NCBI GenBank assembly: GCA_014860355.1 | Contig: JACZJV010000148.1 | Coordinates: forward strand, 2,867 to 66,866 | Length of the DNA: 64,000 nt | Direction: 5' to 3' | Source of the DNA: Burkholderiales bacterium | Lineage (GTDB): Bacteria; Pseudomonadota; Gammaproteobacteria; Burkholderiales; SG8-39 | Part shown: piece by piece, positions 44,285-61,982 of the stretch | Layout: every line of letters starts with the position of its first letter | Numbering within the stretch: position 1 is the stretch's first letter | The notes under the pieces: generated by a model | Database searches by the model: none | What the model saw: only the letters and a program-made list of their open reading frames with translations | What the model was told of the DNA's origin: nothing | Position numbers and translations under genes: made by a program

Positions 44285-44807
44285 GAGTCAGTATACGCGA
44301 TGTGCCTGCGAATCAGGTGCCGCGGTGCGCAGAACCGTGGTTGATCCGGTGTGGCCCGAGCAATCCGGCGGCGTAACGAACCGATTCGATGAATGGCCTG
44401 TTACGTCGACGCGATCTTCGATCCGATTGCGCTGCGCGCCTAAGCCAGGAAGTTCACGGGCGCGATACACGGAATCCGAAGTCGAACCGCACGCGCCGCG
44501 AGATGCTGTTGCCACGGATTATCGGGAGTTGAAGGCGGCTCGCGCAAGCGCTGGAGAACTTGCCAGTTTTGAACAGTCGATTGGCCGGAATGTCAGGCAG
44601 CACCTGGCTCACGCTGCGTTGATTCTTGAGAAGCTGGCCGTCGCCTTGCGGCGGTAGGGAAGATGCGCAGGCGCCGTCGCGCCGTGCTCCCTGGAGGCGA
44701 AGGGCGGCCTAGGGTGCGGATGATCAATGAGTACAATCGGCCGCGACCTGCCGCTGGCGGATTTGCCTGAAAGCAGCCTGTGAAGCAGTGTGGGTGTATG
44801 CTTGCAT

Positions 44808-44859
44808 CGAATAGGCTTTTATCCGCCGTGCGCCAGCATGGCGGATAAAAGCCTATTCG
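44808..44859. repeat. Perfect 20-bp inverted repeat with a 12-nt spacer, 25 bp upstream of the next gene
   Basis: CGAATAGGCTTTTATCCGCC-GTGCGCCAGCAT-GGCGGATAAAAGCCTATTCG, read directly. Confidence 0.9.
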
Positions 44860-44883
44860 TTAGGCGTCAATAGAAAGGAGGGC

Positions 44884-45552
44884 ATGAAAATGACGCGCGT
44901 CCGAGTTGAGTGCTTTACCATCTCGCTTGACGGATACGGCGCTGGTCCGAATCAGGACATCAGGAATCCGCTCGGCGTGGGCGGGACAGAGTTGCACCAG
45001 TGGTTAGTCCCGACACGTACGCTCCAACGGACCCTATTTGGCGCCGACGGAGGCACAACGGGGATCGATGACGACTTCGCTGCGCGGGGCTTCAAGAATG
45101 TCGGCGCCTGGATTCTCGGAAGAAACATGTTCGGACCGATTCGCGGTTCCTGGCCCGACATGAACTGGAAAGGCTGGTGGGGGGACAGCCCACCCTATCA
45201 CGTTCCAACTTTCATCCTGACTCATCATGCGCGCCCGCCCATCCAGATGGAAGGCGGAACGACATTCTACTTCGTCACGGGCGGTATTCACGAGGCGCTT
45301 GACCGGGCGCGCGACGCAGCCAACGGAATGGATGTGCGCATTGGCGGCGGAACTAACACTATCCAGCAATATCTTCGTACGGGCCTTATCGATGAGCTGC
45401 ACTTCGCTATCTCGCCGGTCCTGCTGGGCGGGGGCGAGCGACTGTTCGAGGGGATTGACGTGCGCGCTCTGGGATACGAATGCGTTCAGTTCGTTGCGTC
45501 GGAGAAAGCCACCCATGTGGTACTCCGGCGCCAAGGGAAAAATGACGCCTAA
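44884..45552 (+). CDS. Dihydrofolate reductase-like protein (RibD C-terminal domain family)
   Basis: 222 aa. ISLDGYGAGPNQ..., ILGRNMF, GGGTNTIQQYLRTGLIDELHFAISPVLLGGGERLF are typical of this family. AAAGGAGGG RBS. Confidence 0.75.
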   Translation: MKMTRVRVECFTISLDGYGAGPNQDIRNPLGVGGTELHQWLVPTRTLQRTLFGADGGTTGIDDDFAARGFKNVGAWILGRNMFGPIRGSWPDMNWKGWWGDSPPYHVPTFILTHHARPPIQMEGGTTFYFVTGGIHEALDRARDAANGMDVRIGGGTNTIQQYLRTGLIDELHFAISPVLLGGGERLFEGIDVRALGYECVQFVASEKATHVVLRRQGKNDA

Positions 45553-45628
45553 CAACGATCGACCAGCGCTTTGCCAAGACCCGCGGGCCCGCAATCCCGC
45601 GCTGCCCTGCGCAGCGGAGCAGGGCAAT

Positions 45629-47299
45629 CTACTCCCAGACTACGCTTTGCCCGGCCGCGTACCAGCCCTGCGCAAATGGCCCGTAGCGCTCCTCGATGCG
45701 CGCGCGGCGCAGTTTCATGGTCGGCGTGAGGAATTCGTTTTCGATCGCCCACACGTCTCTCGCGACGGCGATGAACTGCAGCCGCTCGTGCGATTCGAGT
45801 TTGCGGTTGACTTCATCGAGCAGCGCCTGCAGTTTTTGCGTCAGCTCCGCCTGCTGCACCCGCCCCGCGTCGAGCAGTCCCCGCAGATTCTCCGCGAGCA
45901 CGCCAACCGCATGCGGCTGCGGGAAACCCGACCCCGTCACGCTGCACTGATCGAGCAGGCCGGAACTCAGCAGCTGATTCTCGATCGGCGCAGGGGCGAC
46001 ATAGCGTCCCTTGCTGGTCTTGAACAATTCCTTGATGCGCCCGGTGATGCGCAGCCGCCCTTGCGCGTCAAGTTCGCCGCGATCGCCGGTGCGCAGGAAC
46101 CCGTCCGCCGTTACGACTTCGGCGGTCAGTTCGGGGGCTTTGAAATAGCCCATCATCATCCCGGGGCTTTTCACGAGCACCTCACCGTCCTCGCTCAAGC
46201 GCGTTTCGACACCCGGACGCGACCGACCGACGTAGCCGCTGCGGGCGTCAGCCGACTCCGATGCGTGCGAATAGGAGTGATTTTCCGACATGCCGTAGCC
46301 TTCGAGCAGTTCGAGGCCGAGCCGGCGATACCAGTCGATCACGTCCGGCGCAAGCGGCGCCGCGCCGGAGAAGGCGTACCGGACCTGGTCCAGGCCCAGC
46401 CCCGCGAGGATCTTGCGGCGCACCAGCCGGCTCACGATGGGAATCGACAGCAGTGTCTTCAGCTTCTGCGGCGGCATCTTCGCATGCACGCCCGACTGGA
46501 ATTTCATCCACAAGCGCGGCACCGAACAAAACAGCGTCGGCCGCGCGCGCTGCAGGTCCTGCATGAAGCTCTCTAGCGACTCGGCAAAATACAGGTGCAA
46601 GCCGAAAAAGATGCCGATGCCCTCGCCCGCGTAGCGCTCGTAGCTGTGCGCGAGCGGCAGGTAGGACAGATAGCGGTCGGAGGTCCTGACATCGAGCACG
46701 GTGTCCGCGACCATCGCCGCGACCATCCCGGCGAAACTGAGCATCACGCCCTTGGGACTGCCGGTCGTGCCCGAGGTGTAGATGATCGTGGCGAGTTCGT
46801 CCGGATCGCGCTGCGGGATCTGCGCAAGCGGCGCCGACCGGGCGAGCACGTCCTGCCACTTGAGCGCGCCCGTATCCGGCGCCAGGGGTAGTTCGATCAC
46901 GGGCATCCCGGCAGGAACGCCGGCCTTGATGCCCGGCCAGTCGTCCAGCTTGCCGACGAAGAGCAGACGCGATTCGCTGTGTTCGAGGATGCTACGCGCG
47001 GTTTGCGACGACAAGGTCGCATACAAGGGGACCGAGACGTGCCCCGCCATCCAGATGGCGAGGTCGGCCATGATCCAGTGCGCGCTGTTCTTGCCTACGA
47101 TGGCAATCTGGCTGCGCGGCGGCAGATTCAGGTCTGCAAGGTGGCGCGCCACGCGCCGCACCTGGTCCATGGTCTGGCGCCAGGTGTAATCGGTAGTTTT
47201 GCCGCCGTTGTGCGCTTGCGTGAGAAACACCCTGTCCGGCGCGCTGGTCTCCCAATGGGCGGCACGCGCGAGCAACAGGTCATCGACGGAAATCCTCAT
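45629..47299 (-). CDS. AMP-dependent acyl-CoA synthetase/ligase (long-chain fatty-acid-CoA ligase-like)
   Basis: 556 aa. AMP-binding motif IIYTSGTTGSPKGV, YGMSE, TGD...GRIKELFKTSKGRYVAP. Confidence 0.85.
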   Translation of the reverse strand: MRISVDDLLLARAAHWETSAPDRVFLTQAHNGGKTTDYTWRQTMDQVRRVARHLADLNLPPRSQIAIVGKNSAHWIMADLAIWMAGHVSVPLYATLSSQTARSILEHSESRLLFVGKLDDWPGIKAGVPAGMPVIELPLAPDTGALKWQDVLARSAPLAQIPQRDPDELATIIYTSGTTGSPKGVMLSFAGMVAAMVADTVLDVRTSDRYLSYLPLAHSYERYAGEGIGIFFGLHLYFAESLESFMQDLQRARPTLFCSVPRLWMKFQSGVHAKMPPQKLKTLLSIPIVSRLVRRKILAGLGLDQVRYAFSGAAPLAPDVIDWYRRLGLELLEGYGMSENHSYSHASESADARSGYVGRSRPGVETRLSEDGEVLVKSPGMMMGYFKAPELTAEVVTADGFLRTGDRGELDAQGRLRITGRIKELFKTSKGRYVAPAPIENQLLSSGLLDQCSVTGSGFPQPHAVGVLAENLRGLLDAGRVQQAELTQKLQALLDEVNRKLESHERLQFIAVARDVWAIENEFLTPTMKLRRARIEERYGPFAQGWYAAGQSVVWE

Positions 47300-47703
47300 G
47301 CTGCGCTCCTCCCTGATTGCGCCGGCGCGCTCATCGGCCGGAACGCGACGCTCACTCCTGCAGCCAGAACTTCACCGGCCGGTCGTAGGCCGGGCTCATC
47401 CGCATGGCGGTGCCGAAGGTTCCGGTTTCCACCGGCGTACGAGGCTCGTGCTCCGCAACCGGCGCCCCAGACTTTACGCCGACGCGGCTTTCTTTGGAAG
47501 TGAGCCGGCGACGGATAACAACCCGATCGCCTCGCGAGGGGCAACTCTCGGTCAAACGGTCCGGCTATACACGGCGTGCTATCGACCAGGCCCCGCCGCT
47601 GGGCCGAACGTAACACGACGCCAATGAATTGCCGGCGTACGGCTCATCGCCGACCATCAGAATGAGTTACCTGAAGGCTCTTGATCGGCCATTGCTGTAG
47701 TTG

Positions 47704-47808
47704 ACTCTGAGTGCTACCTGCGGCCGGTGTAGATCCGTCACCGACCCTTGGTCACGAATTTAGGCTGAGCGGCAGCTTTCCGTTCCGACAAATGCGTACT
47801 CCCGACCC
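47704..47808 (-). repeat. Diverged inverted copy of the island repeat family (see 53510 and 55508)
   Basis: The reverse complement reads GGGTCGGGAGTACGCATTTGTCGGAACGGAAAGCTGCCGCTCAGCCTAAATTCG...ACACCGGCC. It shares the blocks GGGTCGGGAGT and GAAAGCTGCCGCT with copy A, at roughly two-thirds identity by eye. Confidence 0.6.
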
Positions 47809-47895
47809 TGACCTGTCACTGGCGAAAATTGGGAGCGGCCCTCCGTGTGGTTTCCAGAAAGCTGCTACTCGGGGCTAAGCTTACCGCTCGGCGGC

Positions 47896-48594
47896 TCAGG
47901 CGTAGTAACGCGCCTTCATCCGCTGGCAATAGGCGTCGAGATTGGGCCGGCCCTGCGCATGGTGCCGGATCGGCGAATCCACAGGCGCCCACAGCAGGTT
48001 GGCCATGAAGGCGTAGGCAGTTGCATCGAGCGAGCTGGGCTGCTCACCGAGCATGTAGGGCTTATCGGCGAGAAAGTCCGCAACCGCCGTGACGTCACGG
48101 CAGCCAATCGCGTGAATCTCCTGCGGGCTGTGGCGGCCCATGCCGTGGCCGTGCATCTCGGATAGCATGCCACGGCGCGCGAGCGGCGGTACAACCCAGC
48201 GCAAAGGAACGGGCAACCCGCCGAAGAAGGCTGACTTGGTCAGCGCCCAGCCGTCTTCCTGCGCCCAGCGTGTGTGCGCGACCGCCCAATAGAGGTTTTC
48301 TTCCAGCAGGCGCTGGAAGGCGGTGGCCAGTGCGCGGTCTGGCGGTGAAAGAGAAGCGTCCAGTGGATCGCCGTACTTGCACTTGAGGTATTCGATAATG
48401 AAGGTAGTGTCGGCCACGACAGCGCCGCCATCGTCGATGTAGGGCAGCTTGCGCTTGGGCGCCTTCATCACGTTGCCACTGTTCACAAGTTCGTACGGTA
48501 GGCCGGCCATGCGCAGGTACGTCTCCATCTTCATGCAGAAGGGACTGGCATTCGCCAATCCGAACGCGGGTGCGAACTGGTAGAGCTTGATCAT
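47896..48594 (-). CDS. Glutathione S-transferase family protein
   Basis: 232 aa. N-terminal thioredoxin-like fold with SPFCMK..ETYLRMAGLPYE, and a C-terminal helical GST domain. Confidence 0.75.
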   Translation of the reverse strand: MIKLYQFAPAFGLANASPFCMKMETYLRMAGLPYELVNSGNVMKAPKRKLPYIDDGGAVVADTTFIIEYLKCKYGDPLDASLSPPDRALATAFQRLLEENLYWAVAHTRWAQEDGWALTKSAFFGGLPVPLRWVVPPLARRGMLSEMHGHGMGRHSPQEIHAIGCRDVTAVADFLADKPYMLGEQPSSLDATAYAFMANLLWAPVDSPIRHHAQGRPNLDAYCQRMKARYYA

Positions 48595-48719
48595 GGTGGA
48601 GCCCTCAGTGTGCGGTTGTACGAAGGCGACAGCTACTTCGATTCTGCCACTATTCGCGCGCGGTATCGATGGCGGCGGCTTGCCGCCAATCTCAAGCCGC
48701 CGGCTCTTACATCCATGAG

Positions 48720-49016
48720 TTACGCTTTTAAATCGATAACGTTCTCATACTCCTTGATGCTGGGAGGCGCGGTCAGCATGCTTCCCATCGTTGACCAGAT
48801 AGCTCGAACGTGGTCGGCCGCGCCTTCCGCTTGCTCCCGGCTCTCGTAGATGGCAACCGTGACACCACTGCCGTCTTCGTTCCAAGCCGAATAGCACGCT
48901 GCTAGCCCCTGCACCTTCTTGAGCTCATTACGCACAGAGTCATTCAATTCCTTTACCGCCGCATCCGTTTTTGATGGATCCGCCTGGGTCGTCGATACAC
49001 GTAGGTACATGTCCAT
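48720..49016 (-). CDS. Small ABM/ferredoxin-like alpha-beta barrel protein, function unknown
   Basis: 98 aa. The length and beta-alpha-beta pattern resemble antibiotic-biosynthesis-monooxygenase-like domains. There is no diagnostic motif. Confidence 0.4.
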   Translation of the reverse strand: MDMYLRVSTTQADPSKTDAAVKELNDSVRNELKKVQGLAACYSAWNEDGSGVTVAIYESREQAEGAADHVRAIWSTMGSMLTAPPSIKEYENVIDLKA

Positions 49017-49514
49017 TCCTCCTTGTCTTGTTACAGATAATCAACCTGTCCTAACAAACCGGACCACCTCAAACCTACGCTTGCCATTTGCAGCTTCAGG
49101 CTGTTTCCGATGTTCATATTGCCTCCAATTAAGCGTGGATAGACAGCACGCGCAGGCGTCTTTTTAAGAGACAAATATGAAACCGCCTCCGCGTGCGGTT
49201 CGTTCGCTGCTTTGCAGGGTGGTACAGATTTGTACCAAGAAGAGTGGGCGCTGCGGCCCGAAATTGTGTTTAGGACTCGGCCCCCCCCCAAGCCGATCCG
49301 TTATTGTTCTTTCTTGTTCCGCAAAACGAGATTACGCTTTCCTGCAAATCTATTCAATACACGAGCTGAGTGGGGTGCTCAATGCAAACAGGAATTGATT
49401 GCGCCGATGGCGCGTTGCTTAGTGCCGAACTATCCATCCTGGGTCCGCTGCACGGTCAACCTTCAACGCAAGAGGACTGTGGTTCCAAGGACCGCTTCAG
49501 CGCGACTACGCTGT

Positions 49515-50383
49515 ATGAATGGCCGGTTCGGAGAAGAATCGCCACCGGCCGGTTGTGGCCGATTGTACGCACTCGGCATGCTGTCCAAAAGCCGCCCTTC
49601 GCCCAGAGGGAGAATAATCAGACTCCGATCAACAACGAAGGAGTCTGGCATGGAATCCTCTTAATTTAGGGAACCCTGGAACAAAGGCAAGCTGGTTGGT
49701 CAAAAGCCGCCCCTCAAACCCAAGGATATCTGGGCCATCCGTATTCACCTCCAAAACGAGGGACTGGTTCGAGATCTGGCGATGTTCAATCTTGCAATCG
49801 ACAGCAAACTACGTGGCTGTGACCTGGTCAACCTGCGCGTTTGCGACATCACGCACGGTAACCAAATACTGGGCCGGGCGATGGTCGTGCAACGAAAAAC
49901 TCAACGACCCGTACAGTTTGAATTGACAGAGCCTACGCGCACCGCTGCCGCCGCATGGATCGAAAAGGCGAGACTGAATCCGGAGCAATGTTTGTTTCCA
50001 AGCCGTCTCGCCGATTCGCCCCATGTCTCTACGCGACAGTACGCCCGTATTGCGCATCAGTGGGTCTCAGCGATCGGCCTGGATTCGACGGTATACGGCA
50101 CCCATACGATGCGTCGGACCAAGGCGACGCTGATCTACAAACGGACGAGGAATCTACCGGCTGTTCAGCTTCTGCTCGGGCACTCGAAGCTGGAAAGCAC
50201 CGTCAGGTATCTCGGGATTGAGGTAGATGACGCCTTGGAGATCGCCGAACAGACCGAAATCTAGCAATCACCCGCCCGGCGGTCGCATAGCTACACCGTG
50301 CGACCGCTTTCTGGCACGGATTTCAATACGTGCTCCCGGCCAGCACCGGCCCTCGGCGATTCTTCCCCAAAGCGGCCGCTTAT
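49515..50383 (+). mobile_element. Candidate 869-bp unit: a small tyrosine-recombinase gene bounded by imperfect ~47-bp inverted repeats
   Basis: The reverse complement of 49515-49561 aligns with 50337-50383 at about 36 of 47 positions by hand. Shared core: CGGCCA..ACCGGCC...GGCGATTCTTC.CC.AA.CGGCC. Confidence 0.35.
49650..50264 (+). pseudogene. Small tyrosine recombinase/integrase with an in-frame TAA at codon 5
   Basis: GAAGGAG RBS, then ATG 49650 GAA TCC TCT TAA(49662), continuing in the same frame as FREPWNKGKLVGQKPPLKPKDIWAIRIHLQ... into ORF 49782..50264. Catalytic set present: R (LRGCDL), HTMRRT, LGHSKLESTVRYLG. Confidence 0.7.
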
Positions 50384-50719
50384 CCAATGGGCGGTTCGGA
50401 CTCCACAGAAGCTGCCGTTGCTCGGCCGCCTAACTAGCCGCAATGATTTTGACAATTATCAATATCTGCCTAGAGGCTTCTGATAAAAGCCAAGTATTCC
50501 CACGTTCTCAAATAAGGGAATGCGCAACTCCTTTCTGCTGACTTAGCGCGGGAAGTTAGACTAGGTTCAAGTTGCATTTTCGGGATACAGAGCCCTCCCT
50601 TACGGTACTTCCTGTACCACTCTGCAAGAAGCAAGAACAACAGTACGCATAGCCGAGTTCGTATCTGCATACTACTGGGCCCACGCGCGCTGTCCTTCGA
50701 CATTGAAACGGAGGCAAAT

Positions 50720-51244
50720 ATGAAATCGCCATTCAATATTAAGCTGGAAATTACCGGGGCAAGCGTTTTGGTCGCATTGGTATCGGTAGGACTGACCGCA
50801 ATCCCAGCGAGCGCGCTCGCGGAGAAGCCGGTGTCCTTCAAGGTTCACTGCATGAATACCGGCAACAGTCCACCAGAGTTGCTTGGTGATCGACAAGGAC
50901 ACTCCATCTCAATAGGCGAATACACCTGCAAAGTAGAAGGTGGCGCGTTAGACGGTGGAGTAATGACTGGTACGCATCTTACGGAATGGGATGGAGTCAA
51001 CGGCGTTGGTAAAGCCGGTTTCGGAGTCACTCGCACAGCTGGTGGAAAAGCCGTTTATGTCAACACCGAAATGAAAACCACCTTGACGATGAAAGATGGA
51101 AAGGTTACCGGCTTTCTTGCCAACGGGCGCGGCTATTACGCAGTAGCCACTGGCGCCGCCGAATCGGTCGCCGGTAAGACCTACAGCTACGTCTCAAAGC
51201 CGAGTGGCCCCCGTCAATTCATCATTGAAACTACCTTGGACTAA
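50720..51244 (+). CDS. Secreted hypothetical protein (signal peptide, beta-rich)
   Basis: 174 aa. GGAGG RBS. Signal ...LVALVSVGLTAIPASALA. No recognisable motif. Confidence 0.6.
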   Translation: MKSPFNIKLEITGASVLVALVSVGLTAIPASALAEKPVSFKVHCMNTGNSPPELLGDRQGHSISIGEYTCKVEGGALDGGVMTGTHLTEWDGVNGVGKAGFGVTRTAGGKAVYVNTEMKTTLTMKDGKVTGFLANGRGYYAVATGAAESVAGKTYSYVSKPSGPRQFIIETTLD

Positions 51245-51250
51245 ACAATC

Positions 51251-51279
51251 AGATCCCCCGCGCTTGGGCGCGGGGATCT
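51251..51279 (+). terminator. Stem-loop immediately after the 50720 gene (12-bp GC-rich stem with one bulge, TTGG loop)
   Basis: AGATCCCCCGCGC-TTGG-GCGCGGGGATCT. There is no clear T-run, so terminator function is uncertain. Confidence 0.45.
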
Positions 51280-51318
51280 AGATTGATGTCTGTGAGCACG
51301 AGTTAAGGGAGAAACCCC

Positions 51319-51792
51319 ATGAGCAATATAGCGTTATTCGTGATTCGCAGTCTGATAGCGATTCCAGTAGTTGTCGTCGCACTGTCACTGTCCTTAGCCA
51401 CCGCTCCTATCCCGGCGACGGCGGCTCCCCCGTCTATGCCAGGGGATGTTCAGATGGTACAGCCCGATCCTTCTCTGCCCAAGGAATTGGCGGCTTTCTC
51501 TGGAAAATGGGAAGGGAGTGGACTCGATACCGCAAAGGGACAGATTCAGTTCTTTCTCATCGTGGAAGAAATTACCAAAGAAATGGCAACCCTTCGTGTT
51601 TGGCATAGCGTTCATGGTTGGTCTCAGCGGGAAGCCGAGGTGGCCAACGAAAGCGGGAAATATAAACTTCGGTATAAAGGACCATTTGGTAAGAATGTGA
51701 TTACGTCAACCGGGGCGGGATTGGTTTTTGATGCACAACATCGTGATGGGAAAGCCTCTTGGTTCACTATTAATCTTAAACGCGCACCTTAA
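51319..51792 (+). CDS. Secreted or membrane-anchored hypothetical protein
   Basis: 157 aa. N-terminal hydrophobic signal SLIAIPVVVVALSLSLATAPIPATA. No recognisable motif. Confidence 0.55.
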   Translation: MSNIALFVIRSLIAIPVVVVALSLSLATAPIPATAAPPSMPGDVQMVQPDPSLPKELAAFSGKWEGSGLDTAKGQIQFFLIVEEITKEMATLRVWHSVHGWSQREAEVANESGKYKLRYKGPFGKNVITSTGAGLVFDAQHRDGKASWFTINLKRAP

Positions 51793-51983
51793 AGAAGCGA
51801 TAACAGAATCAATCCGCCTCGTGGAGCGGCCGCCGCTATCCTACTTGTCAGGAAAAGCATCATTAGCTATCGACCTGAAATGCGGAAACAGAAAAATTGG
51901 TGGGCAGCACCGCACCGTTCATAACGTGAGAATTAATCGGTTGCCAATCAAGAGAGCGCTATCTAATGAAAAAGGAGTGACTC

Positions 51984-52367
51984 ATGACTACGAGCAAGAC
52001 TAAGGTTTTTCGTTTTACTATGCTTGGGTTGATCGCGTTCGGCATGGCCGGCCTCGTGGCCGCTCAAGGCAATTCTCGCTCGTTCGAGGCGTCACCTGAC
52101 GTCTACAAAGTACTCGCGCAGAGCGATCAATATCTCGTAATTGAGATAACTTGGAAGCCGGGTCAGCGTGACCAATTTCATTCACACCCAGCCTCCGGCG
52201 GGTACTACCTCAATGATTGCAAGGTGCGCTGGCATAGGCCAGACGGTAGTTCGCGCGATTTCACGAACCCTGCCGGTCGTGCCTTTGCGTTACCACCCGT
52301 TGAATCACACTCAATGGAGAACATTGGCGACTCCGAATGCCGCGTCATCCAGTTTGAGCCAAAGTAA
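51984..52367 (+). CDS. Cupin-domain protein with an N-terminal signal/anchor
   Basis: 127 aa. AAGGAG RBS. FHSHP...G...H pattern of a cupin metal site. Signal LGLIAFGMAGLVAAQG. Confidence 0.6.
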   Translation: MTTSKTKVFRFTMLGLIAFGMAGLVAAQGNSRSFEASPDVYKVLAQSDQYLVIEITWKPGQRDQFHSHPASGGYYLNDCKVRWHRPDGSSRDFTNPAGRAFALPPVESHSMENIGDSECRVIQFEPK

Positions 52368-52457
52368 GGGCTAAGTTTTCTGGGCATGCGTCGCAAATCG
52401 CATCGGCGCAAAGAAGGATAAAGGGCGGCGCGCTGCTCGACAAAGCCTTAGGGGATC

Positions 52458-53465
52458 ATGATGGCCAAACTTAAAAGACACTTGATACTTGTTGCGTTCT
52501 TTGCCTTGGTTCCGCTCACCCAGCCTGGCACTGCGCCTTCGAACTGGGCCGACGCCGCTGGTGGCCCGAATACTGCGAAACCGGGGAGTACGGGATTTGC
52601 ATCCAAGCTGGGTAACGTCGGTGAAACGCGCACGCTCGAAATACTTCCATTGGTGGATTGGAACACCGCCAGCCTGAAGCTTCGCGGCGAGGCCGGAGTG
52701 TCCTATCTAGTACGCACCGACAAAAGCACTATTTTGTTCGATGTCGGTGGAAATCTTGAAAATAGCGACCCGTCCCCGTTGGTTGCGAACATGCTGCAGC
52801 TGGGAATTAAACTTGCCGACATCGACACCATCGTGATCTCACACAATCACCCGGATCACGTAGGGGGGCAAACTTCGATGTTCTCACGGACGTTTTCGCT
52901 GGATAGTAAGCCCGTCGATCTTCGGGGAAAGCGCGTCTACGTACCCATTCCAATGACGTATCCGGACATTGAGCCGGTTACGGTTCTCGAACCGATGGTC
53001 ATCGCACCTGGTGTTGCCACGATTGGCCCAATTACCGGAAGGATAAACATGGGTCCTGTTGACGAGCAGGCGTTAGCAATCCGGGTGGAGGGCAGGGGCA
53101 TAGTGCTGATCGTAGGCTGCGGACACCAAGGGCTTTCCAATTTGCTCACGCGCAGCACGCTACTCTTCGAGGAGCCGATATACGGCGTTGTCGGTGGATT
53201 GCATTATCCGATACCGCAGGGTCGCGTAATTGTGGCGGGTGTCGATATTCAGCGCTGGGCGACTTACGGGTCTGATAGTGGTCCGACCGCCGATGACGTG
53301 CAGCGCGAGATCGACTTGCTTGCCAGAACGGGGCCACAGTGGGTATCGTTGAGTCCGCACGATAGCAGCGATGAGATGATTGAGGTTTTCCGCGCAAAAT
53401 TCGGGCCGCGTTATCACGACCTGCGAGTGGGAGAGGCGCAACTAATCGCGGGAGTGAAACCTTAG
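52458..53465 (+). CDS. Secreted MBL-fold metallo-hydrolase (COG1237-like)
   Basis: 335 aa. SHNHPDHVGG (HxHxDH). EILPLVDW...GVSYLVRTDKSTILFDVGGN opening. N-terminal signal. Confidence 0.75.
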   Translation: MMAKLKRHLILVAFFALVPLTQPGTAPSNWADAAGGPNTAKPGSTGFASKLGNVGETRTLEILPLVDWNTASLKLRGEAGVSYLVRTDKSTILFDVGGNLENSDPSPLVANMLQLGIKLADIDTIVISHNHPDHVGGQTSMFSRTFSLDSKPVDLRGKRVYVPIPMTYPDIEPVTVLEPMVIAPGVATIGPITGRINMGPVDEQALAIRVEGRGIVLIVGCGHQGLSNLLTRSTLLFEEPIYGVVGGLHYPIPQGRVIVAGVDIQRWATYGSDSGPTADDVQREIDLLARTGPQWVSLSPHDSSDEMIEVFRAKFGPRYHDLRVGEAQLIAGVKP

Positions 53466-53509
53466 CTCGAAACGAGAGACCGCTTTCTAGCAGTACGGGT
53501 GGCCGGAAC

Positions 53510-53598
53510 GGGTCGGGAGTGACGATTCGCGCTTTGGAAAAGCTGCCGCTGGCCGAAATTTCAGCAGGCGACGGATGTCAGAGAGTACAACCGGCCAG
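53510..53598 (+). repeat. Island repeat copy A (89 nt)
   Basis: GGGTCGGGAGTGACGATTCGCGCTTTGGAAAAGCTGCCGCTGGCCGAAATTTCAGCAGGCGACGGATGTCAGAGAGTACAACCGGCCAG. Differs from copy B by 3 substitutions and 1 one-base indel. Confidence 0.9.
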
Positions 53599-53764
53599 TA
53601 GCGGAAGTTGGAGCATAGACCCCAGAGGGGCTGCTTCTGACTTTCAATGGACGCTCAGGTTTTCAGAGGAGCGGGCCGGATCCATTTACGTCCATATCGG
53701 CCTGCTCCCCGATGGCAAAGGGGGTCAATCGCGAATGTAATTATTGGTTGGCATAAAAAGCGGT

Positions 53765-55108
53765 TCAGAAAGAGCAGTTCACGTAGTGACCACTGGAACC
53801 GAAGTATTGGAAATCCGCGCGCACGTTCTGGCCATTCGTGCAGTCGATGTTGCCGTTGATGAATACGCTGCCGTTGTTGCTGATGTCGGCGGCGCTGTCG
53901 TTACTCGGGAACACGTCACCGTTGACGATCACGGCACCGTTACTGCTGCCGAGCAGGCGCACGTTGGAAGTGGGACCGCGAGCCCAGATGTTGCCGTAGA
54001 CGATGACCCTGCGAAGATCGGCGGTTGAGAGGTTGTACGCCTGCACGTTGCCTCGGACAACGGTCACAGAAGCCGGCACGCTCGGGTCAATTCGCAGCGA
54101 CGACACCGACCCGACCTCGAGCGCGCTGCCGGGGCCCGTGTTCGCAATCGTGTTGCCGCTTCCGGACACGCGGGCGGTGGAATTGCGCTGGACCGAAAGG
54201 GTGGCGCAGCTGAAGGTCGCGGCGCCGCTGATCAACGTGTTGCCTTCGTTTAGACTCAGCGCGGATCCGTCCCCGATGAATACCGCGCAGGAACTGTCGC
54301 CGGTCGCAGTGACGCGGGAATTTTCCATCAACACCGACGACGAGCGCAGTGCGCTCACCGCTGTGCGTCCGGCAGATTCGACGGCGCTGTTGGCGAGGTC
54401 TACCGAACCGTTGTCAGACGCCAGCACGGCGACTTCCGCGTTGCCTCTGATCGTCGTCGCGCCCGGCTCGTTCATGAGGTTCTTGCCGATGAGCGCCCGA
54501 GAGCCACGACCGACCACCACGCCGTTCGTACCATTGGAGTCGATGGTGCTGTTGGTGATTTCCGCAATCCCACCGCCCTGCGCGTAGACGCCCGCCTTGA
54601 CGTTGTCGCGCGCGGTGCAGTTGTCGATACGCAGGAGCCCGCCACCGATGAGCGATGCGCCGTTTAACCCGTTATTCTCGAGAATGCAATTTCTGAGTTC
54701 AACTCTGCTGGCGACCACGGCGATACCGCTAGAAGTGCCGCCGGCCAGCGTGATGTTCTCGATTTCGATCCGGCCGGGTGCCTCTACCGTGACGGGACTC
54801 TCATCGTAGCGGTCGGCTTCCTCAACGCCTATGATCTTGCTCGAACCGGGATCATTCCCTCGCAACGTGACGTCACCTCGGTGGATAGTCACGTTCTCGT
54901 GGCAAGTGCCCTCGATCAAGACGATCACGCGGCCCTTGTCGGGTGATGTCTCGATTGCCTTGTTGATGGACTGCGAGGGACAGCGAACCTTGACGATATG
55001 GGTGGTGGTGTCAGCCGTGGCGGCCCCTGAAACGAATGTCATCGACAGGCTCACCGCGGCCAAAATGGATGCCACCTTGCTGAATGGGGTGTATGTTGAA
55101 TGGGTCAT
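53765..55108 (-). CDS. Secreted right-handed parallel beta-helix repeat protein
   Basis: 447 aa. AGGAGC RBS and a signal peptide. Repetitive N/G/S/V-rich turns (NCILENNGLNGASL.., NSTIDSNGTNGVVV..) are typical of pectate-lyase-fold proteins. Confidence 0.7.
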   Translation of the reverse strand: MTHSTYTPFSKVASILAAVSLSMTFVSGAATADTTTHIVKVRCPSQSINKAIETSPDKGRVIVLIEGTCHENVTIHRGDVTLRGNDPGSSKIIGVEEADRYDESPVTVEAPGRIEIENITLAGGTSSGIAVVASRVELRNCILENNGLNGASLIGGGLLRIDNCTARDNVKAGVYAQGGGIAEITNSTIDSNGTNGVVVGRGSRALIGKNLMNEPGATTIRGNAEVAVLASDNGSVDLANSAVESAGRTAVSALRSSSVLMENSRVTATGDSSCAVFIGDGSALSLNEGNTLISGAATFSCATLSVQRNSTARVSGSGNTIANTGPGSALEVGSVSSLRIDPSVPASVTVVRGNVQAYNLSTADLRRVIVYGNIWARGPTSNVRLLGSSNGAVIVNGDVFPSNDSAADISNNGSVFINGNIDCTNGQNVRADFQYFGSSGHYVNCSF

Positions 55109-55507
55109 TTCTTGCTCCTATCCTTTGGACTCAGCACCATGAGGTGGTGCGACGCCTTCTAAACGGGAAGCACAGATGTGCCGATAAAGATGGGGCCCGT
55201 ACGCCCAGAGAAATGAACGAATACTTACCTAGGCCGCTAATTTTTCATTACTTACAGCATAGGCTGCGCGCTACATCGGCTGGGAGTCAATAGACCGAAA
55301 CTAATGAAGCGGTAGGTTTTCGATGGTTTGTTGACTAATGTCAAACGCGCTTGCGGCTTAAGGCAGGCGGCGGCTGGGAATACCATGATTTCGTCACATT
55401 GGCGACGGCCGGCGTTTCGCACGGTGACGAAGCTCAGCCGAGCACAGCCAGTGACCGCAATCGCTGCGTTGCTGCCGTTGAGCCACCAAGCCGTAACTGA
55501 CCGCATT

Positions 55508-55595
55508 GGGTCGGAGTGACGATTCGCGCTTTGGAAAAGCTGCCGCTCGCCGAAATTGCAGCAGGCGACGGGTGTCAGAGAGTACAACCGGCCAG
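55508..55595 (+). repeat. Island repeat copy B (88 nt), a direct repeat of copy A
   Basis: About 95 percent identical to 53510-53598, in the same orientation and 1998 bp downstream. The flanks on both sides are unrelated. Confidence 0.9.
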
Positions 55596-55791
55596 GACCG
55601 GCCGCTCGATGTTTTCCCACATACCGGACTCATGTCGGCTGGAGCCTGCCCGGCGCACTCGCTGTCCCTGGATGCGCTCAGATTAGAGCCCGGCGCAACA
55701 CGTTTGCTGTGTCGCGTACCGCAGGCAATCCGCACCGCAGCAGCCAGCCCATGTGGCAGGGTGGCAGGATAGTTTGTCGGTCGCCGCCGAA

Positions 55792-58569: not shown

Positions 58570-59523
58570 ATGATGCAGGAACTTGCCGCTCTCATCAGCC
58601 AGTATGGCCTGTTGATCGTATTCGCGTTGGTGCTGCTGGAACAGCTGGGACTGCCCCTGCCGGCGATGCCCGCCCTCATCATTGCAGGAGCGATCGCCGC
58701 GCGTGGCGAGCTCTCGCTACCGGCGCTTTTCGGATCCGCCGTGCTCGCTTGCCTCATCGGGGACGCAGCCTGGTACGCCGCGGGGCGGAGCTACGGCAAT
58801 CGGGTTCTGAAGACGCTTTGCCGTGTCTCGCTTTCGCCTGACATTTGCGTGAACCAGGCCCACGCGAATTTTGACCGCTGGGGCATGGGTCTGCTGGTCA
58901 TTGCAAAGTACGTACCGGGGCTATCGACGGTGGCGCCGCCGCTCGCCGGCACAATGCGCGTCGGGTGGCGCGCCTTCATGCTGTTCGACGGGATCGGCAC
59001 CATGCTCTGGTCGGCTACCGGCCTGGGCGCGGGCTATCTGATGCACACCCAGATTGCGGTATTGCTGGCGCAGGCTGAGCGCCTGGGAACGGGTGTGCTG
59101 GTACTCGTCGCGGCGATCGCGGCCGGCTACGTGGCGACGAAATGGTGGAAGCGCCGGCGCCTGCTTGCCATGGTTCGTTCTGCGCGCATCGACGTCGACG
59201 AGCTGCACACCCTGATGAGTTCTGGAGCCCAACCGTTGATCGTCGACCTGCGACCCACCACCGCCCGCAGATTTGATCCCAGGACCATCCCGGGAGCAGT
59301 GCCCGTGGAGTTGCGCGCAATCCCGCGGAATTTCAGGCCCGCGCCGTCGCCAGACCAGGACATAATCATTTTTTGCACCTGCCCCAATGAAGCGGGGGCC
59401 GCTCGGGCCGCACGCTTGCTGATGGAACGCGGTTATGCACGCGTGCGGACCCTGCAGGGCGGCTTCGACGCCTGGATCGCGGCTGGCCACGGCACGCAGA
59501 CTTTTTCTGCTGCCGTTGCGTAG
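58570..59523 (+). CDS. DedA (VTT/SNARE-associated) membrane domain fused to a C-terminal rhodanese domain
   Basis: ATG 58570. DedA-type LEQLGLPLPAMPALIIAG... with several TM helices, then a rhodanese-like tail (LIVDLRP...IIIFCTCPNEAGAARAARLL...GGFDAW). Confidence 0.7.
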   Translation: MMQELAALISQYGLLIVFALVLLEQLGLPLPAMPALIIAGAIAARGELSLPALFGSAVLACLIGDAAWYAAGRSYGNRVLKTLCRVSLSPDICVNQAHANFDRWGMGLLVIAKYVPGLSTVAPPLAGTMRVGWRAFMLFDGIGTMLWSATGLGAGYLMHTQIAVLLAQAERLGTGVLVLVAAIAAGYVATKWWKRRRLLAMVRSARIDVDELHTLMSSGAQPLIVDLRPTTARRFDPRTIPGAVPVELRAIPRNFRPAPSPDQDIIIFCTCPNEAGAARAARLLMERGYARVRTLQGGFDAWIAAGHGTQTFSAAVA

Positions 59524-59741
59524 AGGGAGTTCCAGATCGCGGCAACGGCATCACGAGCGATCGCTCTCGAAATTCGCCAGAGACGGCTCCGGGTCGTGAC
59601 TGTGGATTCGCGTCCTCGAATGGCGGACCCCGAGCTCTGGTTGAGGAAGCAATGGCTTGGGCGTAATCTGACCACGCCAAGCCCCACTTGTGGGAGCGAC
59701 TTCGTTATTCGGCGGGTAAGTAGAAGCGGGGGACGGATCAG

Positions 59742-60439
<698 letters not shown>

Positions 60440-60726
60440 TCGCGTTCAGCACTATTGGTGTCCGCGAAATTCACGCGTCGAGTGGCCGCTTTTCAAAGCG
60501 GTCTACTTCCGTTTCGGGTCGATAGGGCGAGTAGCGATTTTCGATAAGCAGCGAAAGGTGCGACTCGCGTAGCGTAACTCTCGGCCATCGAGAGACGCCG
60601 GCGAGACATGGAAGTTGCCGCTCCAGGCGTCCGGTCCACACTCGACAGCCGACCTTCATGGATCTCGAGCGGCACTATTTTTTTGAAACGCCGCGCGCGG
60701 GTGGCGTTCTGGAACGTTCCCCTGGG

Positions 60727-61698: not shown

Positions 61699-61982
61699 CT
61701 GTCCGTCTCCTGGTTAAGTTTCATTGCCCTCGCCGTCCTGCGTAGCGAAAGATTTTATTTAGGGCCGCGTGGGTCAGCCGCCGATGACCTTCCCAACCAA
61801 CGAAGGCGAGCGGAAGATGAACCCGGCAGCCCGCAGGACTCAAGATAACGCATCTGGGCCGCTGTTGGCTAATCTGAGACGCAAGCGCCCGGATCGGTAT
61901 GATCGAGCGACGGCCGCCCCGGACGCCGCTGGTCCTGGATTGCGGGCATTCCTGCGCGGGTGCCATCGCCAGAGCAGGTAGA

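Follow-up and report, generated by a model that had tools for sequence, protein, structure and literature searches.

Short repeated sites around a small tyrosine recombinase gene in a Burkholderiales genome

The short repeated blocks found between 44.7 and 55.6 kb of the window (the whole 64-kb stretch of Burkholderiales DNA analysed here) are real, belong to one family, and are not confined to the host genome. They are probably the recombination sites of widespread small mobile units with a tyrosine recombinase. The window contains a decayed island of this small-recombinase family. A literature search found no description of the family, and the mobile units are apparently undescribed.

Two types of sites in the window

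The site family is conserved across genomes. The T1 profile (62 nt) was built from 52 recombinase-flanking sites of other genomes only, and the T2 profile from 25 copies, none of them from the window. The seven best T1 matches in the window are all within 44.7-55.6 kb, and all T1 matches outside this region have E > 1. In the flanks, the T2 profile finds only insignificant T2-like remnants, at 59572-59612 and 60500-60552 (E 0.5-0.9). The first-pass annotation, which reported no blocks in the flanks, was thus essentially right. It had also proposed one site family tied to the recombinase, and the profiles indeed find the same sites beside recombinase homologues in dozens of genomes. At 10 bits or more the T1 profile marks 119 places in the real loci versus 3 in reversed sequence; at 12 bits or more the T2 profile marks 75 versus 0.

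The blocks correspond to parts of these sites. The block GAGTACAAYCGGCC is the T1 core. With up to two mismatches it has four matches, at 44729(+), 49557(-), 53583(+), and 55580(+), where 0.8 is expected by chance, and all four are inside the region. The block GGGTCGGGAGT is the variant core ACTCCCGACCC read on the opposite strand; alone it has two matches versus 1.15 expected, not above chance. The third block, GCTGCCGYT, is the inner-arm box. The 10-mer GCTGCCGYTG, to which the annotation had drawn attention, is non-specific, as four of its eight matches are in the flanks.

The T1 site is ~100 nt long and centred on an invariant CGGCCA. Its order is the inner arm, GTRCnnY, CGGCCA, and the outer arm with AGCGGYC boxes. 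Sites E and F are the ends of the recombinase unit (Table 1). Their arms at 49512-49561 and 50337-50386 are inverted repeats around the recombinase, 76% identical to each other. The GCGGCCGCTTTC box is kept across 80 downstream flanks. Site D is 74% complementary to site E over 73 nt. The match at site G, absent from the earlier list, is suggestive of a T1 copy.

Table 1. Features of the island, by position in the window.
Feature	Position	Strand	Parts and contents	Evidence
Site D, full T1	44700-44757	+	inner arm 44700-44730; core GTACAATCGGCCG 44731-44743; outer arm rightward	T1 profile E 6e-5, profile positions 2-59
Site G, candidate T1, weak and partial	47574-47602	+	core GTGCTATCGACCA 47576-47588	E 0.15, positions 31-59
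Element C, full-length T2, left boundary of local island	47684-47826	-	ATCGGCCA 47684-47691; degenerate core 47721-47733(-); variant core GTACTCCCGACCC 47796-47808(+)	T2 profile E 4e-17, positions 3-145
Left gene segment	47896-49016	-	GST-like gene 47896-48594; 98-aa gene 48720-49016; transcribed away from recombinase	
Inverted homology	49077-49266 (left arm); 50575-50766 (right arm)			66.5% identity over 200 nt, E 1e-13
Site E, T1, left end of recombinase unit	49512-49599	-	outer arm 49512-49555; core GTACAATCGGCCA 49556-49568(-); inner arm to 49599	T1 profile 49599-49541(-), E 1e-11
Hairpin over recombinase ribosome-binding site	49619-49647	+	CAGACTCC-N13-GGAGTCTG	
Tyrosine recombinase gene, 204 aa	49650-50264	+	catalytic domain only	translation; Pfam Phage_integrase
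Terminator-like hairpin, 3' of recombinase gene	50281-50312	+	GGTCGCA...TGCGACC, then GCTTTCT	read from sequence
Site F, T1, right end of recombinase unit	50299-50386	+	inner arm 50299-50329; core GTGCTCCCGGCCA 50330-50342; outer arm to 50386	T1 profile 50299-50354, E 8e-10
Right gene segment	50720-53465	+	174-aa and 157-aa secreted-looking proteins, 127-aa cupin, 335-aa MBL-fold hydrolase; G+C 0.51-0.57; transcribed away from recombinase	ORFs, Pfam
Element A, miniature unit	53500-53610	+	variant core GTCACTCCCGACCC 53510-53523(-); ~60 nt inner-arm sequence; T1 core GTACAACCGGCCA 53585-53597	T2 profile E 3e-6, positions 11-74; T1 profile 53576-53610, E 1.4e-3
Beta-helix gene, 447 aa, between elements A and B	53765-55108	-		Pfam Beta_helix
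Element B, miniature unit, right boundary of local island	55492-55609	+	variant core 55508-55520(-); T1 core 55582-55594(+)	T2 profile E 5e-8; T1 profile 55573-55609, E 7.5e-5

The T2 element is a composite of ~145 nt. It packs three related cores closely together: first a miniature unit, then a short outer segment ending in GGCCGA. Element C is also matched by the T1 profile, at 47768-47823(+) with E 0.012. Within it, 47722-47819 is an inverted copy of the A/B repeat with ~70% identity, in agreement with the inverted copy placed earlier at 47704-47808. Elements A and B are 90% identical over 105 nt (53500-53604 and 55498-55601, E 6e-30), and the identity ends at the outer edges of both cores. 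Gene-less miniature units are 88-115 nt long and keep their ends. The T2 hairpins of the window copy are degraded; its T2 copies fold no better than shuffled sequence. In the family, 78% pairing is seen in the central inverted repeat of T2, with modest covariation (16 cells changed on both sides, a value reached in 4 of 500 shuffles). Both fit a duplex inverted repeat as well as a site folded as a single strand.

Three sites of the annotation did not hold. Tandem Repeats Finder finds no tandem units at 55424-55595, where copy B is located. Neither profile detects a site at 47851-47885, and 49240-49280 is part of the separate 200-nt inverted homology (Table 1). That the sites fall at junctions between functionally unrelated genes, as also claimed, is confirmed by Pfam matches and T1-profile positions, and these genes differ in G+C.

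The recombinase and its discrete unit

The recombinase matches Pfam PF00589 at residues 32-183 (E 1.8e-17; 64 bits, cut-off 27), leaving only ~31 residues ahead of the catalytic-domain match. XerA, XerC, and XerD are its best profile and PDB matches. The catalytic pentad R-K-H-R-H/W and the tyrosine nucleophile are present: R55, K83, H152, R155, H178, and Y187, all retained in the window copy, align with XerD R148, K172, H244, R247, H270, and Y279. The predicted structure (mean pLDDT 52) is too poor for use. Simple tyrosine recombinases consist of a core-binding and a catalytic domain, and the section on subgroups gives no subgroup with the catalytic domain only (Smyshlyaev et al. 2021, PMC8138268). 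As the class is defined there, the 204-aa protein falls outside it for want of the core-binding domain.

The window gene is probably a pseudogene. It has TAA at codon 5 (49662-49664), where homologues read MESPQFREPWNKGKL, and four changes (R65C, V135A, R170P, and S199A) at sites invariant in 10 close homologues. The window copy is a fossil, with a broken recombinase gene and degraded T2 copies. Present activity of the island would need an intact recombinase copy elsewhere in the genome. The hairpin upstream of the gene is predicted to sequester its ribosome-binding site. Of 77 distinct upstream regions, 60 have the Shine-Dalgarno GGAG base-paired, and the stem sequences vary by subfamily, for example GTCCTCC/GGAGGAC in Pseudomonas. 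The terminator-like hairpin overlaps the inner-arm box of site F.

The recombinase matches over 8000 protein clusters; the best 120 are 85-95% identical and nearly all 204 aa long. The gene is present in at least 573 genome loci and at least 450 plasmid records, and the carriers are mostly Betaproteobacteria and Pseudomonas. The recombinases show ~87% protein identity versus only ~75% DNA identity, indicating purifying selection. Copies sharing a genome or locus show 57-80% protein identity. Many homologues are on contigs of 1-2 kb.

The basic unit is ~790 bp and contains the RBS-masking hairpin, the 204-aa recombinase gene, and the terminator-like hairpin. In the window it is 787 bp (49556-50342), between inverted T1 sites. 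Three loci (L021, L113, and L114) are 91-93% identical to the window, and the similarity is limited to this interval, beginning at 49556 and ending at 50342/50343. One contig of 797 nt (L023) starts with TGGCCGATTGTAC and ends with GTACAATCGGCCA. Among 699 alignment endpoints between loci, 120 are within 15 nt of a site mark, versus 6 expected; 112 are at T1 edges and 8 at T2 marks. Homology between genomes breaks exactly at the cores. Three loci (L047, L054, and L069) match the IncP-1 plasmid pRSB223 edge to edge. Loci L098 and L099 share 99.6% identity, over no more than 743 nt. In two Vogesella species, the unit is 99.7% identical and the common flanks are 80-87% identical. A 1.86-kb version with two extra genes occurs on a Dechloromonas contig and on an Azonexus plasmid; the two copies are 94.5% identical, and their flanks are unrelated.

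Architecture of the island and alternative explanations

T2 elements usually bracket the recombinase as an inverted pair, around outward-pointing accessory genes. On the left of the recombinase 25 are minus and 10 plus; on the right 29 are plus and 9 minus. The profile scan near recombinase homologues, proposed in the annotation, gave 75 T2 matches over 894 kb of sequence lying no more than 8 kb from the gene, and none over the 149 kb at distances of 8-10 kb. One Azonexus replicon, scanned over 200 kb, has no strong T2 copies other than those bracketing the recombinase. T2 is tied to the recombinase by position and orientation. The T2 copies of one locus pair up, with 92.8% identity in L017 and 78.9% in L054. 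Identity of recombinase units shows no correlation with that of T2 (rho 0.08, a value reached in 408 of 2000 permutations), and tight pairing of enzyme and site is therefore not demonstrated. Between the unit and T2, ~78% of the ORF length faces outward.

In the window, the GST-like gene has Pfam GST_N_4 and GST_C_6, and the 98-aa protein has no Pfam family. A 27-codon remnant ORF (ATG 49117, minus) in the left arm of the inverted homology is similar to the 5' end of the 174-aa gene at 50720. The pair of cupin and MBL genes recurs beside rpoD and dnaG in L111, with 75% identity over 1426 nt. Homologues of the beta-helix gene are rare and confined to contigs of 1-3 kb. Neither their contexts nor those of the MBL homologues are informative on gene-segment movement. 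In the related organism of L113, the unit is near the same helicase-like gene, and the intervening genes are entirely different.

We favor, as the likelier explanation, a two-site-type island system, in which a T1-bounded recombinase unit lies amid T2-ended accessory genes and conservative exchange occurs at the cores. The unit is normally central in a small island, with outward-facing accessory genes to its left and right and a T2 end on each side. The small recombinase would act on T1 and T2 sites and perform conservative strand exchange at the CGGCCA cores, where the strands would be cut. Any segment between two cores could be inverted, excised, or swapped with a segment of another replicon. 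Some exchangeable segments, either gene-bearing or miniature, would have no recombinase gene. Segments of accessory genes may move in this way; the evidence for movement is limited to the recombinase unit itself. Points against this system are that the contigs compared show no recombination product, that the recombinase of the window is a pseudogene, and that inverted bounding sites would normally give inversion, not excision, whereas the unit is found in different contexts. The cassette array suggested in the annotation was overstated: arrays have one or two elements per side, site orientation alternates, and there are sites to the left and right of the recombinase.

Alternatively, the 787-bp unit may be an autonomous IS-like element, with the core and the inner arm as its terminal inverted repeats, which we consider possible but unlikely. 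Elements A, B, C, and the T2 centre would then be internal-deletion derivatives (MITEs) and the genes between them passive, not moving as modules; the conservation of the outer arms would come from a preferred quasi-palindromic target. Inverted repeats bound the unit, its ends are sharp in unrelated contexts, and the presence of many homologues on 1-2 kb contigs is repeat-like. Sites E and F bound the gene, while A, B, C, and the T2 centre have no gene; miniature units retain both cores and inner arms, and A and B are alike no further than the outer edges of their cores. Outer arms are alike within a locus, as with a palindromic target (E and F, and also L001), and no sign of gene-segment movement was seen. 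However, no insertion-sequence family is known to be driven by a tyrosine recombinase, and our searches turned up none either. Copies within a genome are divergent (70-80% at the amino acid level), unlike the near-identical copies of active IS elements. Conservation across genera extends to the outer arms and to all 145 nt of T2, ending at the core, which is beyond what a preferred target would call for. The restriction of T2 to within 8 kb of the gene, its orientation bias, and the absence of target-site duplications at A and B also argue against an IS.

It is quite improbable that the unit is an invertible toggle, flipping between the inverted T1 sites and directing transcription left or right, with T2 hairpins as terminators. 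The inverted repeats at the ends of the unit, and the outward-facing genes to its left and right, are consistent with it. So is the contig L023, bounded exactly by 13-bp inverted repeats, the assembler output expected for an invertible segment. The recombinase is similar in size to FimB/FimE, and the 5' regions in the two flanks of the unit in the window are related, each having a ribosome-binding site and a start codon. This left/right homology is not general, however; in other loci such homologies are mostly T2 pairs. Contigs sharing flanks have one orientation per set, although the samples are small, and 8 + 8 + 4 contigs with three recombinase variants share one orientation. No circle junction, empty site, or orientation polymorphism was seen in the contigs compared. 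The two hairpins of the unit argue against read-through control, and inversion alone does not account for identical units in unrelated contexts and plasmids. Chance similarity or a genome-specific decaying repeat, with only the A/B duplicate real, is scarcely credible. It draws on the two blocks that individually are not above chance or not specific, on the poor folding of the window copies, and on the pseudogene. The local copy is indeed decaying, as the annotation had considered (codon-5 stop and degraded hairpins), but the family is not genome-specific. Profiles free of window sequences still find the window copies, at E values as low as 1e-11 (T1) and 4e-17 (T2); there is nothing comparable elsewhere in the 64 kb; and reversed-sequence controls give 0-3 matches against 75-119. 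These scans and controls refute it.

Comparison with known systems

The mechanism proposed for the two-site-type island system would, by analogy, resemble pdif modules, shufflons, or a two-armed integron. Integrons also have a tyrosine recombinase beside short arrays of accessory genes, each array ending 3' of the genes in an imperfect palindromic element (~60-145 nt), and the gene content of one locus varies between related genomes. The annotation was correct that the recombinase is unlike IntI and the sites unlike attC. Against the integron integrase model TIGR02249 the recombinase scores 20.4 bits (cut-off 265), over residues 120-183 only, and with 204 aa it is too short for the IntI-specific insertion. 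Integron cassettes all point the same way and lie to one side of the integrase, each with an attC at its end, whereas T2 elements are on both sides, inverted, one or two per side. The attC sites recombine as folded single strands; in T2, which is unlike attC in sequence, no such folding signal stands out beyond the inverted repeat. Membership in integrons was rejected on the integrase and on the one-sided, same-orientation cassettes.

IS elements and their MITEs share with the unit a length of ~790 bp, inverted ends, a single enzyme gene, and gene-less versions of 88-115 nt. Several IS elements also mask the ribosome-binding site by a hairpin. Their enzymes are DDE, HUH, or serine transposases, in contrast to the tyrosine recombinase here. 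The island differs also in having no target duplications at A or B, conservation extending beyond the ends, and divergent copies within a genome. FimB and FimE are tyrosine recombinases of ~200 aa acting on inverted repeats around a short segment. They are encoded outside the 314-bp switch with its 9-bp inverted repeats, whereas the recombinase gene here is part of the segment itself and its sites are much larger. The NCBIfam matches of the recombinase include neither a FimB nor a FimE model.

Shufflons (Rci and sfx repeats, IncI plasmids) similarly have segments, alternating short sites, and an adjoining tyrosine recombinase, and allow multiple inversions. Rci is 384 aa long. In a shufflon the segments provide one gene with alternative 3' ends, whereas the segments here are whole unrelated genes, the recombinase unit itself occurs in unrelated contexts, and no inversion variants were seen. 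In the pdif modules of Acinetobacter plasmids, unrelated gene segments are between inversely oriented sites for a Xer-type recombinase. Site orientation alternates, homology between replicons breaks at the sites, and both plasmids and chromosomes are involved, as here. Inversely oriented bounding sites with breakpoints at them were found here for the recombinase unit only, and the sites show no similarity to the dif consensus. The pdif modules use the host XerC/XerD at 28-bp XerC-spacer-XerD sites. Here, a single 204-aa recombinase without the core-binding domain is encoded inside one module, and the sites are complex, ~100-145 nt long, around GTRCnnYCGGCCA.

Repeated blocks and the recombinase gene in the window

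The G+C content of the window falls from ~0.65 to 0.51-0.57 at 49-54 kb, and the region is distinct by composition. The first-pass annotation had described three short blocks recurring at gene junctions between 44729 and 55595. The block GAGTACAAYCGGCC has four matches with up to two mismatches, all within this region, versus 0.8 expected. Taken singly, the other two blocks do not stand: GGGTCGGGAGT has two matches against 1.15 expected, which is not above chance, and four of the eight matches to GCTGCCGYTG lie in the flanks. The tandem units proposed at 55424-55595 were not found. Sensitive self-comparison of the window indicated that the blocks are parts of longer similarities. The sequences at 53500-53604 and 55498-55601 are 90% identical, and an inverted copy of this repeat, with ~70% identity, is present at 47722-47819. 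The pair 44687-44759 and 49540-49612 is 74% complementary, and the pair 49512-49561 and 50337-50386, with the recombinase gene between them, is 76% complementary.

The similarity of the ORF at 49650-50264 to tyrosine recombinases is limited to their catalytic domain. The best curated matches of the ORF are Xer families, all far under their cut-offs, and it scores 20 bits against the integron-integrase model, whose cut-off is 265. The catalytic residues align with XerD. They belong to a domain preceded by ~31 residues, with a basic N-terminal tail of 30 residues (PWNKGKLVGQKPPLKPK), and there is therefore no room for a core-binding domain. In the published classification of tyrosine recombinases, even "simple" members consist of a core-binding and a catalytic domain, and its subgroup section contains no catalytic-domain-only subgroup (PMC8138268). 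The structure predicted from a shallow alignment had a mean pLDDT of 52. Codon 5 of the window gene is TAA (MESS*FREPWNKGKL in the window versus MESPQFREPWNKGKL in homologues), and the substitutions R65C, V135A, R170P and S199A affect four positions that are invariant in ten homologues. Because of this stop codon and these four changes, the window copy is probably a pseudogene.

In a hairpin at 49619-49647, the Shine-Dalgarno sequence upstream of the recombinase gene is base-paired. Sixty of 77 distinct upstream regions retain this hairpin, with stem sequences that vary by subfamily. It looks like a guard against translation from read-in transcripts, and a hairpin masking the Shine-Dalgarno sequence is a feature shared with several insertion sequences. 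Another hairpin, terminator-like and overlapping the inner-arm box of the neighboring site, lies 3' of the gene.

Some other structures were observed in this part of the window. An Rfam scan of 44-60.5 kb yielded only two miRNA matches, both spurious. The mir-600 match originates from a near-perfect palindrome at 44798-44873 with a ~30-bp stem (AATAGGCTTTTATCCGCC...GGCGGATAAAAGCCTATT), a short distance 5' of the RibD_C (DHFR-like) gene. A run of nine C is present at 49281-49289, to the left of the recombinase unit, and a comparison locus, L009, has a run of seven G similarly far outside its right site; the C run could be a slippage-prone tract. On the minus strand at 49034-49117, a 27-codon remnant ORF resembles the start of the 174-aa gene (50720-50800; ribosome-binding site, ATG and signal-peptide region). 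This remnant falls within a 200-nt inverted homology of the left and right flanks. Inverted flank duplication as a general trait of the family was rejected, as the strong cases are T2 pairs (see below) except in the locus L075.

T1 sites and the recombinase unit

More than 8000 protein clusters match the recombinase. The best 120 of them are 85-95% identical, and the length is 204 aa in almost all of these. The recombinase is present in at least 573 genome loci, mainly from Rhodocyclales, Nitrosomonadales (Thiobacillus), Burkholderiales and Pseudomonas, and in 450 plasmid records, including the IncP-1 plasmid pRSB223. Plasmids of 0.4-0.5 Mb from Pseudomonas aeruginosa also carry it. Intact copies are present, for instance, in Thauera, Zoogloea, Dechloromonas and Stutzerimonas chloritidismutans AW-1, and WP_168941937 of Azonexus is an intact family member. 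Protein identity of ~87% goes with DNA identity of ~75%. Six loci (L025, L037, L065, L088, L093 and L099) contain two recombinase units less than 10 kb apart with 57-80% protein identity, and in several genomes, such as Thiobacillus denitrificans DSM 12475 and Rubrivivax albus, units are observed on separate contigs.

The T1 site, a putative recombination site of ~100 nt, was defined from the aligned flanks of ~80 recombinase homologues. It is present on both sides of the gene in inverted orientation and at fixed spacing, with ~81 nt to the ATG on one side and ~65 nt from the stop codon on the other. It is composed of an inner arm (GGCCGCTTTCnGGCAnGATGCnGAATGC), a core of GTRCnnY followed by the invariant CGGCCA, and an outer arm (gaAGCGGYCnnTC); a second AAGCGGnCATTC is often seen ~30 nt further out. 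A 62-nt profile was built from 52 recombinase-flanking sites, window sequences excluded. All of its seven best window matches lie between 44.7 and 55.6 kb, and at 10 bits or more it matches 119 places in the full locus set versus three in reversed sequence. Dyad symmetry around the core, compared between copies, is inconsistent. Pairing of the inner and outer boxes as a hairpin within one site was unsupported on inspection; the motif itself is near-palindromic.

Homology between units stops at the cores. Between the window and the loci L021, L113 and L114, 91-93% identity is limited to 49556-50342, exactly core to core, and a 797-nt contig of Candidatus Propionivibrio aalborgensis starts with TGGCCGATTGTAC and ends with GTACAATCGGCCA. 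Of the 699 endpoints of alignments among all loci, 120 are no more than 15 nt from a site mark, where six are expected, and T1 edges account for 112 of these 120. The matches of chromosomal units to pRSB223 extend from one edge to the other. One contig of Pseudomonas and one of Stutzerimonas have 743 nt in common at 99.6% identity and no other similarity, and the unit is 99.7% identical between two Vogesella species whose syntenic flanks are 80-87% identical. A 1.86-kb version of the unit with two extra genes is present in Dechloromonas and on an Azonexus plasmid; the two copies are 94.5% identical, and their flanks are unrelated. Thus, the unit moves or is exchanged as a block that ends at the CGGCCA cores; the invariance of CGGCCA means that the crossover point within it is not resolvable.

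In four loci (L009-L012, 1250-3815), an IS91-family Y2 transposase gene and a 291-aa integrase gene form an insertion directly at a weak T1 site (minus strand) beside the recombinase. The otherwise identical loci L013-L016 do not contain this insertion.

T2 elements and the accessory genes around the recombinase

The window elements A, B and C are inverted end pairs without a gene. Each comprises a variant core GTCACTCCCGACCC, which is the reverse complement of the block GGGTCGGGAGT, an inner-arm stretch of ~60 nt and another core, and the identity between A and B ends at the outer edges of the cores. A profile of these three copies gave unexpected matches at many other loci, by which a second putative recombination site, T2, was recognised. 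T2 is a conserved composite of ~145 nt: GGGTCGGnAGTnCGCATTCGCCGGAtnGGAAAGCTGCCGTTCG, a loop, CGAACGGCAGGTnACC..CACATTGCTGACCGA, ~25 nt and GCCAnCGGCnGCTnnGGCCGA. Its left part is homologous to the T1 core and inner arm, its center is an inverted repeat (78% of cells paired, with modest covariation), and its end is made up of an outer arm and one half of a T1 core. With a T2 profile free of window sequence, C is matched over its full length (E 4e-17) and B and A over their left halves (E 5e-8 and 3e-6, respectively). At 12 bits or more, 75 copies are found in the full locus set versus none in reversed sequence. T2 of other genomes folds better than shuffled sequence (z -1.6 to -3), and the window copies fold no better than shuffled sequence. 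GGGTCGG was considered as a Tn3-family end and rejected, as there is no match past 6 nt and the orientation is wrong.

T2 is tied to the recombinase gene by position and orientation. Up to 8 kb from the gene there are ~0.8 T2 copies per 10 kb, and no copy is present in the 149 kb at 8-10 kb. Left of the gene 25 copies are on the minus strand and 10 on the plus strand; right of it 29 are on the plus and 9 on the minus strand. The GGCCGA end points away from the gene. Matched T2 pairs within a locus are 92.8% identical in L017 and 78.9% in L054. In the 200 kb scanned of a 319-kb Azonexus hydrophilus replicon, the sole strong T2 copies (93 bits each) lie on either side of the recombinase, inverted and 18 kb apart, with a few weaker T1 sites elsewhere. 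About 78% of the ORF length between unit and T2 faces outward, and the genes there have miscellaneous accessory functions, such as a TIR-Mrr protein, an autotransporter and a lactonase. The segment at 5048-6895 of L054, beside the unit, codes for a protein with an Mrr-type nuclease and a TIR domain, which looks like a defence gene.

The corresponding arrangement of the window is listed below.

Plan of the window region, from the sites left of C to element B
Feature	Position	Orientation	Remark
T1 site D	44700-44757		further left than C; full site
T1 site G	47574-47602		further left than C; weak partial site
T2 element C	47684-47826	-	leftmost part of the island plan
GST gene and 98-aa gene	right of C	-
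T1 site E, recombinase gene, T1 site F	right of the 98-aa gene	E -, F +
Four genes	right of F	+
Element A, beta-helix gene, element B	right of the four genes, in that order

Core orientation alternates along the region, and every gene segment therefore faces outer arms. The accessory genes are those for GST, cupin, an MBL-fold hydrolase and a beta-helix protein. The hydrolase (52458-53465) has a precomputed Pfam match to PF23023 (Anti-Pycsar Apyc1). In L113, from a related organism, a helicase-like protein is 88% identical to that at 61972-64000 of the window, and the unit is 3.4 kb from its gene. Comparison by tblastn of called proteins indicated that the intervening genes are entirely different from those of the window; a difference in content between related genomes, which the first-pass annotation had proposed to look for, was thus seen. 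Homologues of the beta-helix gene are rare, and in a search for movement of gene segments, a 97%-identical contig ended inside the segment. The pair of cupin and MBL genes adjoins rpoD and dnaG in L111 without significant sites. In L110, a miniature pair of T1 sites (minus and plus, 652-788) lies 6 kb from an MBL homologue, and the 15 kb covered there contain no recombinase homologue; miniature units without a gene can therefore be located apart from the recombinase gene.

The stretch at 47.7-55.6 kb is a decayed island of the family and not a functioning system; perhaps it starts at 44.7 kb. T2-like remnants with insignificant scores (E 0.5-0.9) are seen at 59507-59625 and 60500-60552, in the right flank formerly regarded as core-like; a hairpin (GCCGTTGCG...CGCGGCAACGGC) and GGGTCGTGACTGTGGATTCGCG are among them. 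In the past, the island may have extended further to the right.

Possible mechanism and comparison with known systems

A conserved site family flanking a conserved tyrosine recombinase, homology breakpoints at an invariant core, and a second related element tied to the gene by position and orientation are established. The recombinase would catalyze conservative exchange at the CGGCCA cores, by which segments between cores would be inverted, excised or swapped between replicons. Because of the alternating arrangement, neighboring sites are inverted, and recombination between them would give a harmless inversion. Sites separated by one other site are direct repeats, and recombination between these would lead to excision. 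A plasmid-chromosome cointegrate, resolved at a second pair of sites, would result in exchange. Such exchange would account for the occurrence of identical units on plasmids and in contexts that are otherwise unrelated, and for the Vogesella case too. Neither recombination products nor orientation variants were seen in the contigs examined, and T2 identity does not co-vary with the identity of the recombinase unit.

That the blocks are chance similarities or a repeat specific to this genome is refuted by the window matches of profiles built without window sequence and by the counts in real versus reversed sequence. The leading alternative is a selfish element of the IS type that has MITE derivatives and a structured target. 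Insertion sequences with MITEs are the closest known systems by anatomy. The family lacks the target duplications and near-identical copies typical of active insertion sequences. A toggle switch that works by inversion is a less likely alternative. It is a real possibility, though less likely than not, that the family represents a new class of gene-exchange platform, self-encoded and two-armed. Its minimal, catalytic-domain-only tyrosine recombinase would act on complex sites of 100-145 nt and move the 790-bp unit and neighboring accessory-gene segments between chromosomes and plasmids via the CGGCCA cores in Betaproteobacteria and Pseudomonas, in parallel to integrons and pdif modules in function and with an independent origin.

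If exchange at the cores takes place as proposed, thousands of genes annotated as "tyrosine-type recombinase/integrase" represent a distinct and widespread route of accessory-gene transfer in environmental Betaproteobacteria and plasmids. The recombinase would rank among the smallest self-sufficient tyrosine recombinases, and its lack of a core-binding domain raises the question of how sites of at least 100 nt are recognised. The T1 and T2 profiles mark out small genomic islands overlooked by current annotation. The window instance is a fossil, and the interest lies in the family it revealed. Full-text searches of the literature found no description of the recombinase family, its sites or the pRSB223 integrase.

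By operation, the closest known systems are the pdif modules of Acinetobacter, shufflons and integrons. The family departs from integrons in lacking an IntI-type integrase, attC-like site sequences and one-sided arrays, and it does not have the 28-bp dif-like site of pdif modules, which is used by host Xer proteins. The family is best placed among the site-specific recombination elements driven by tyrosine recombinases.
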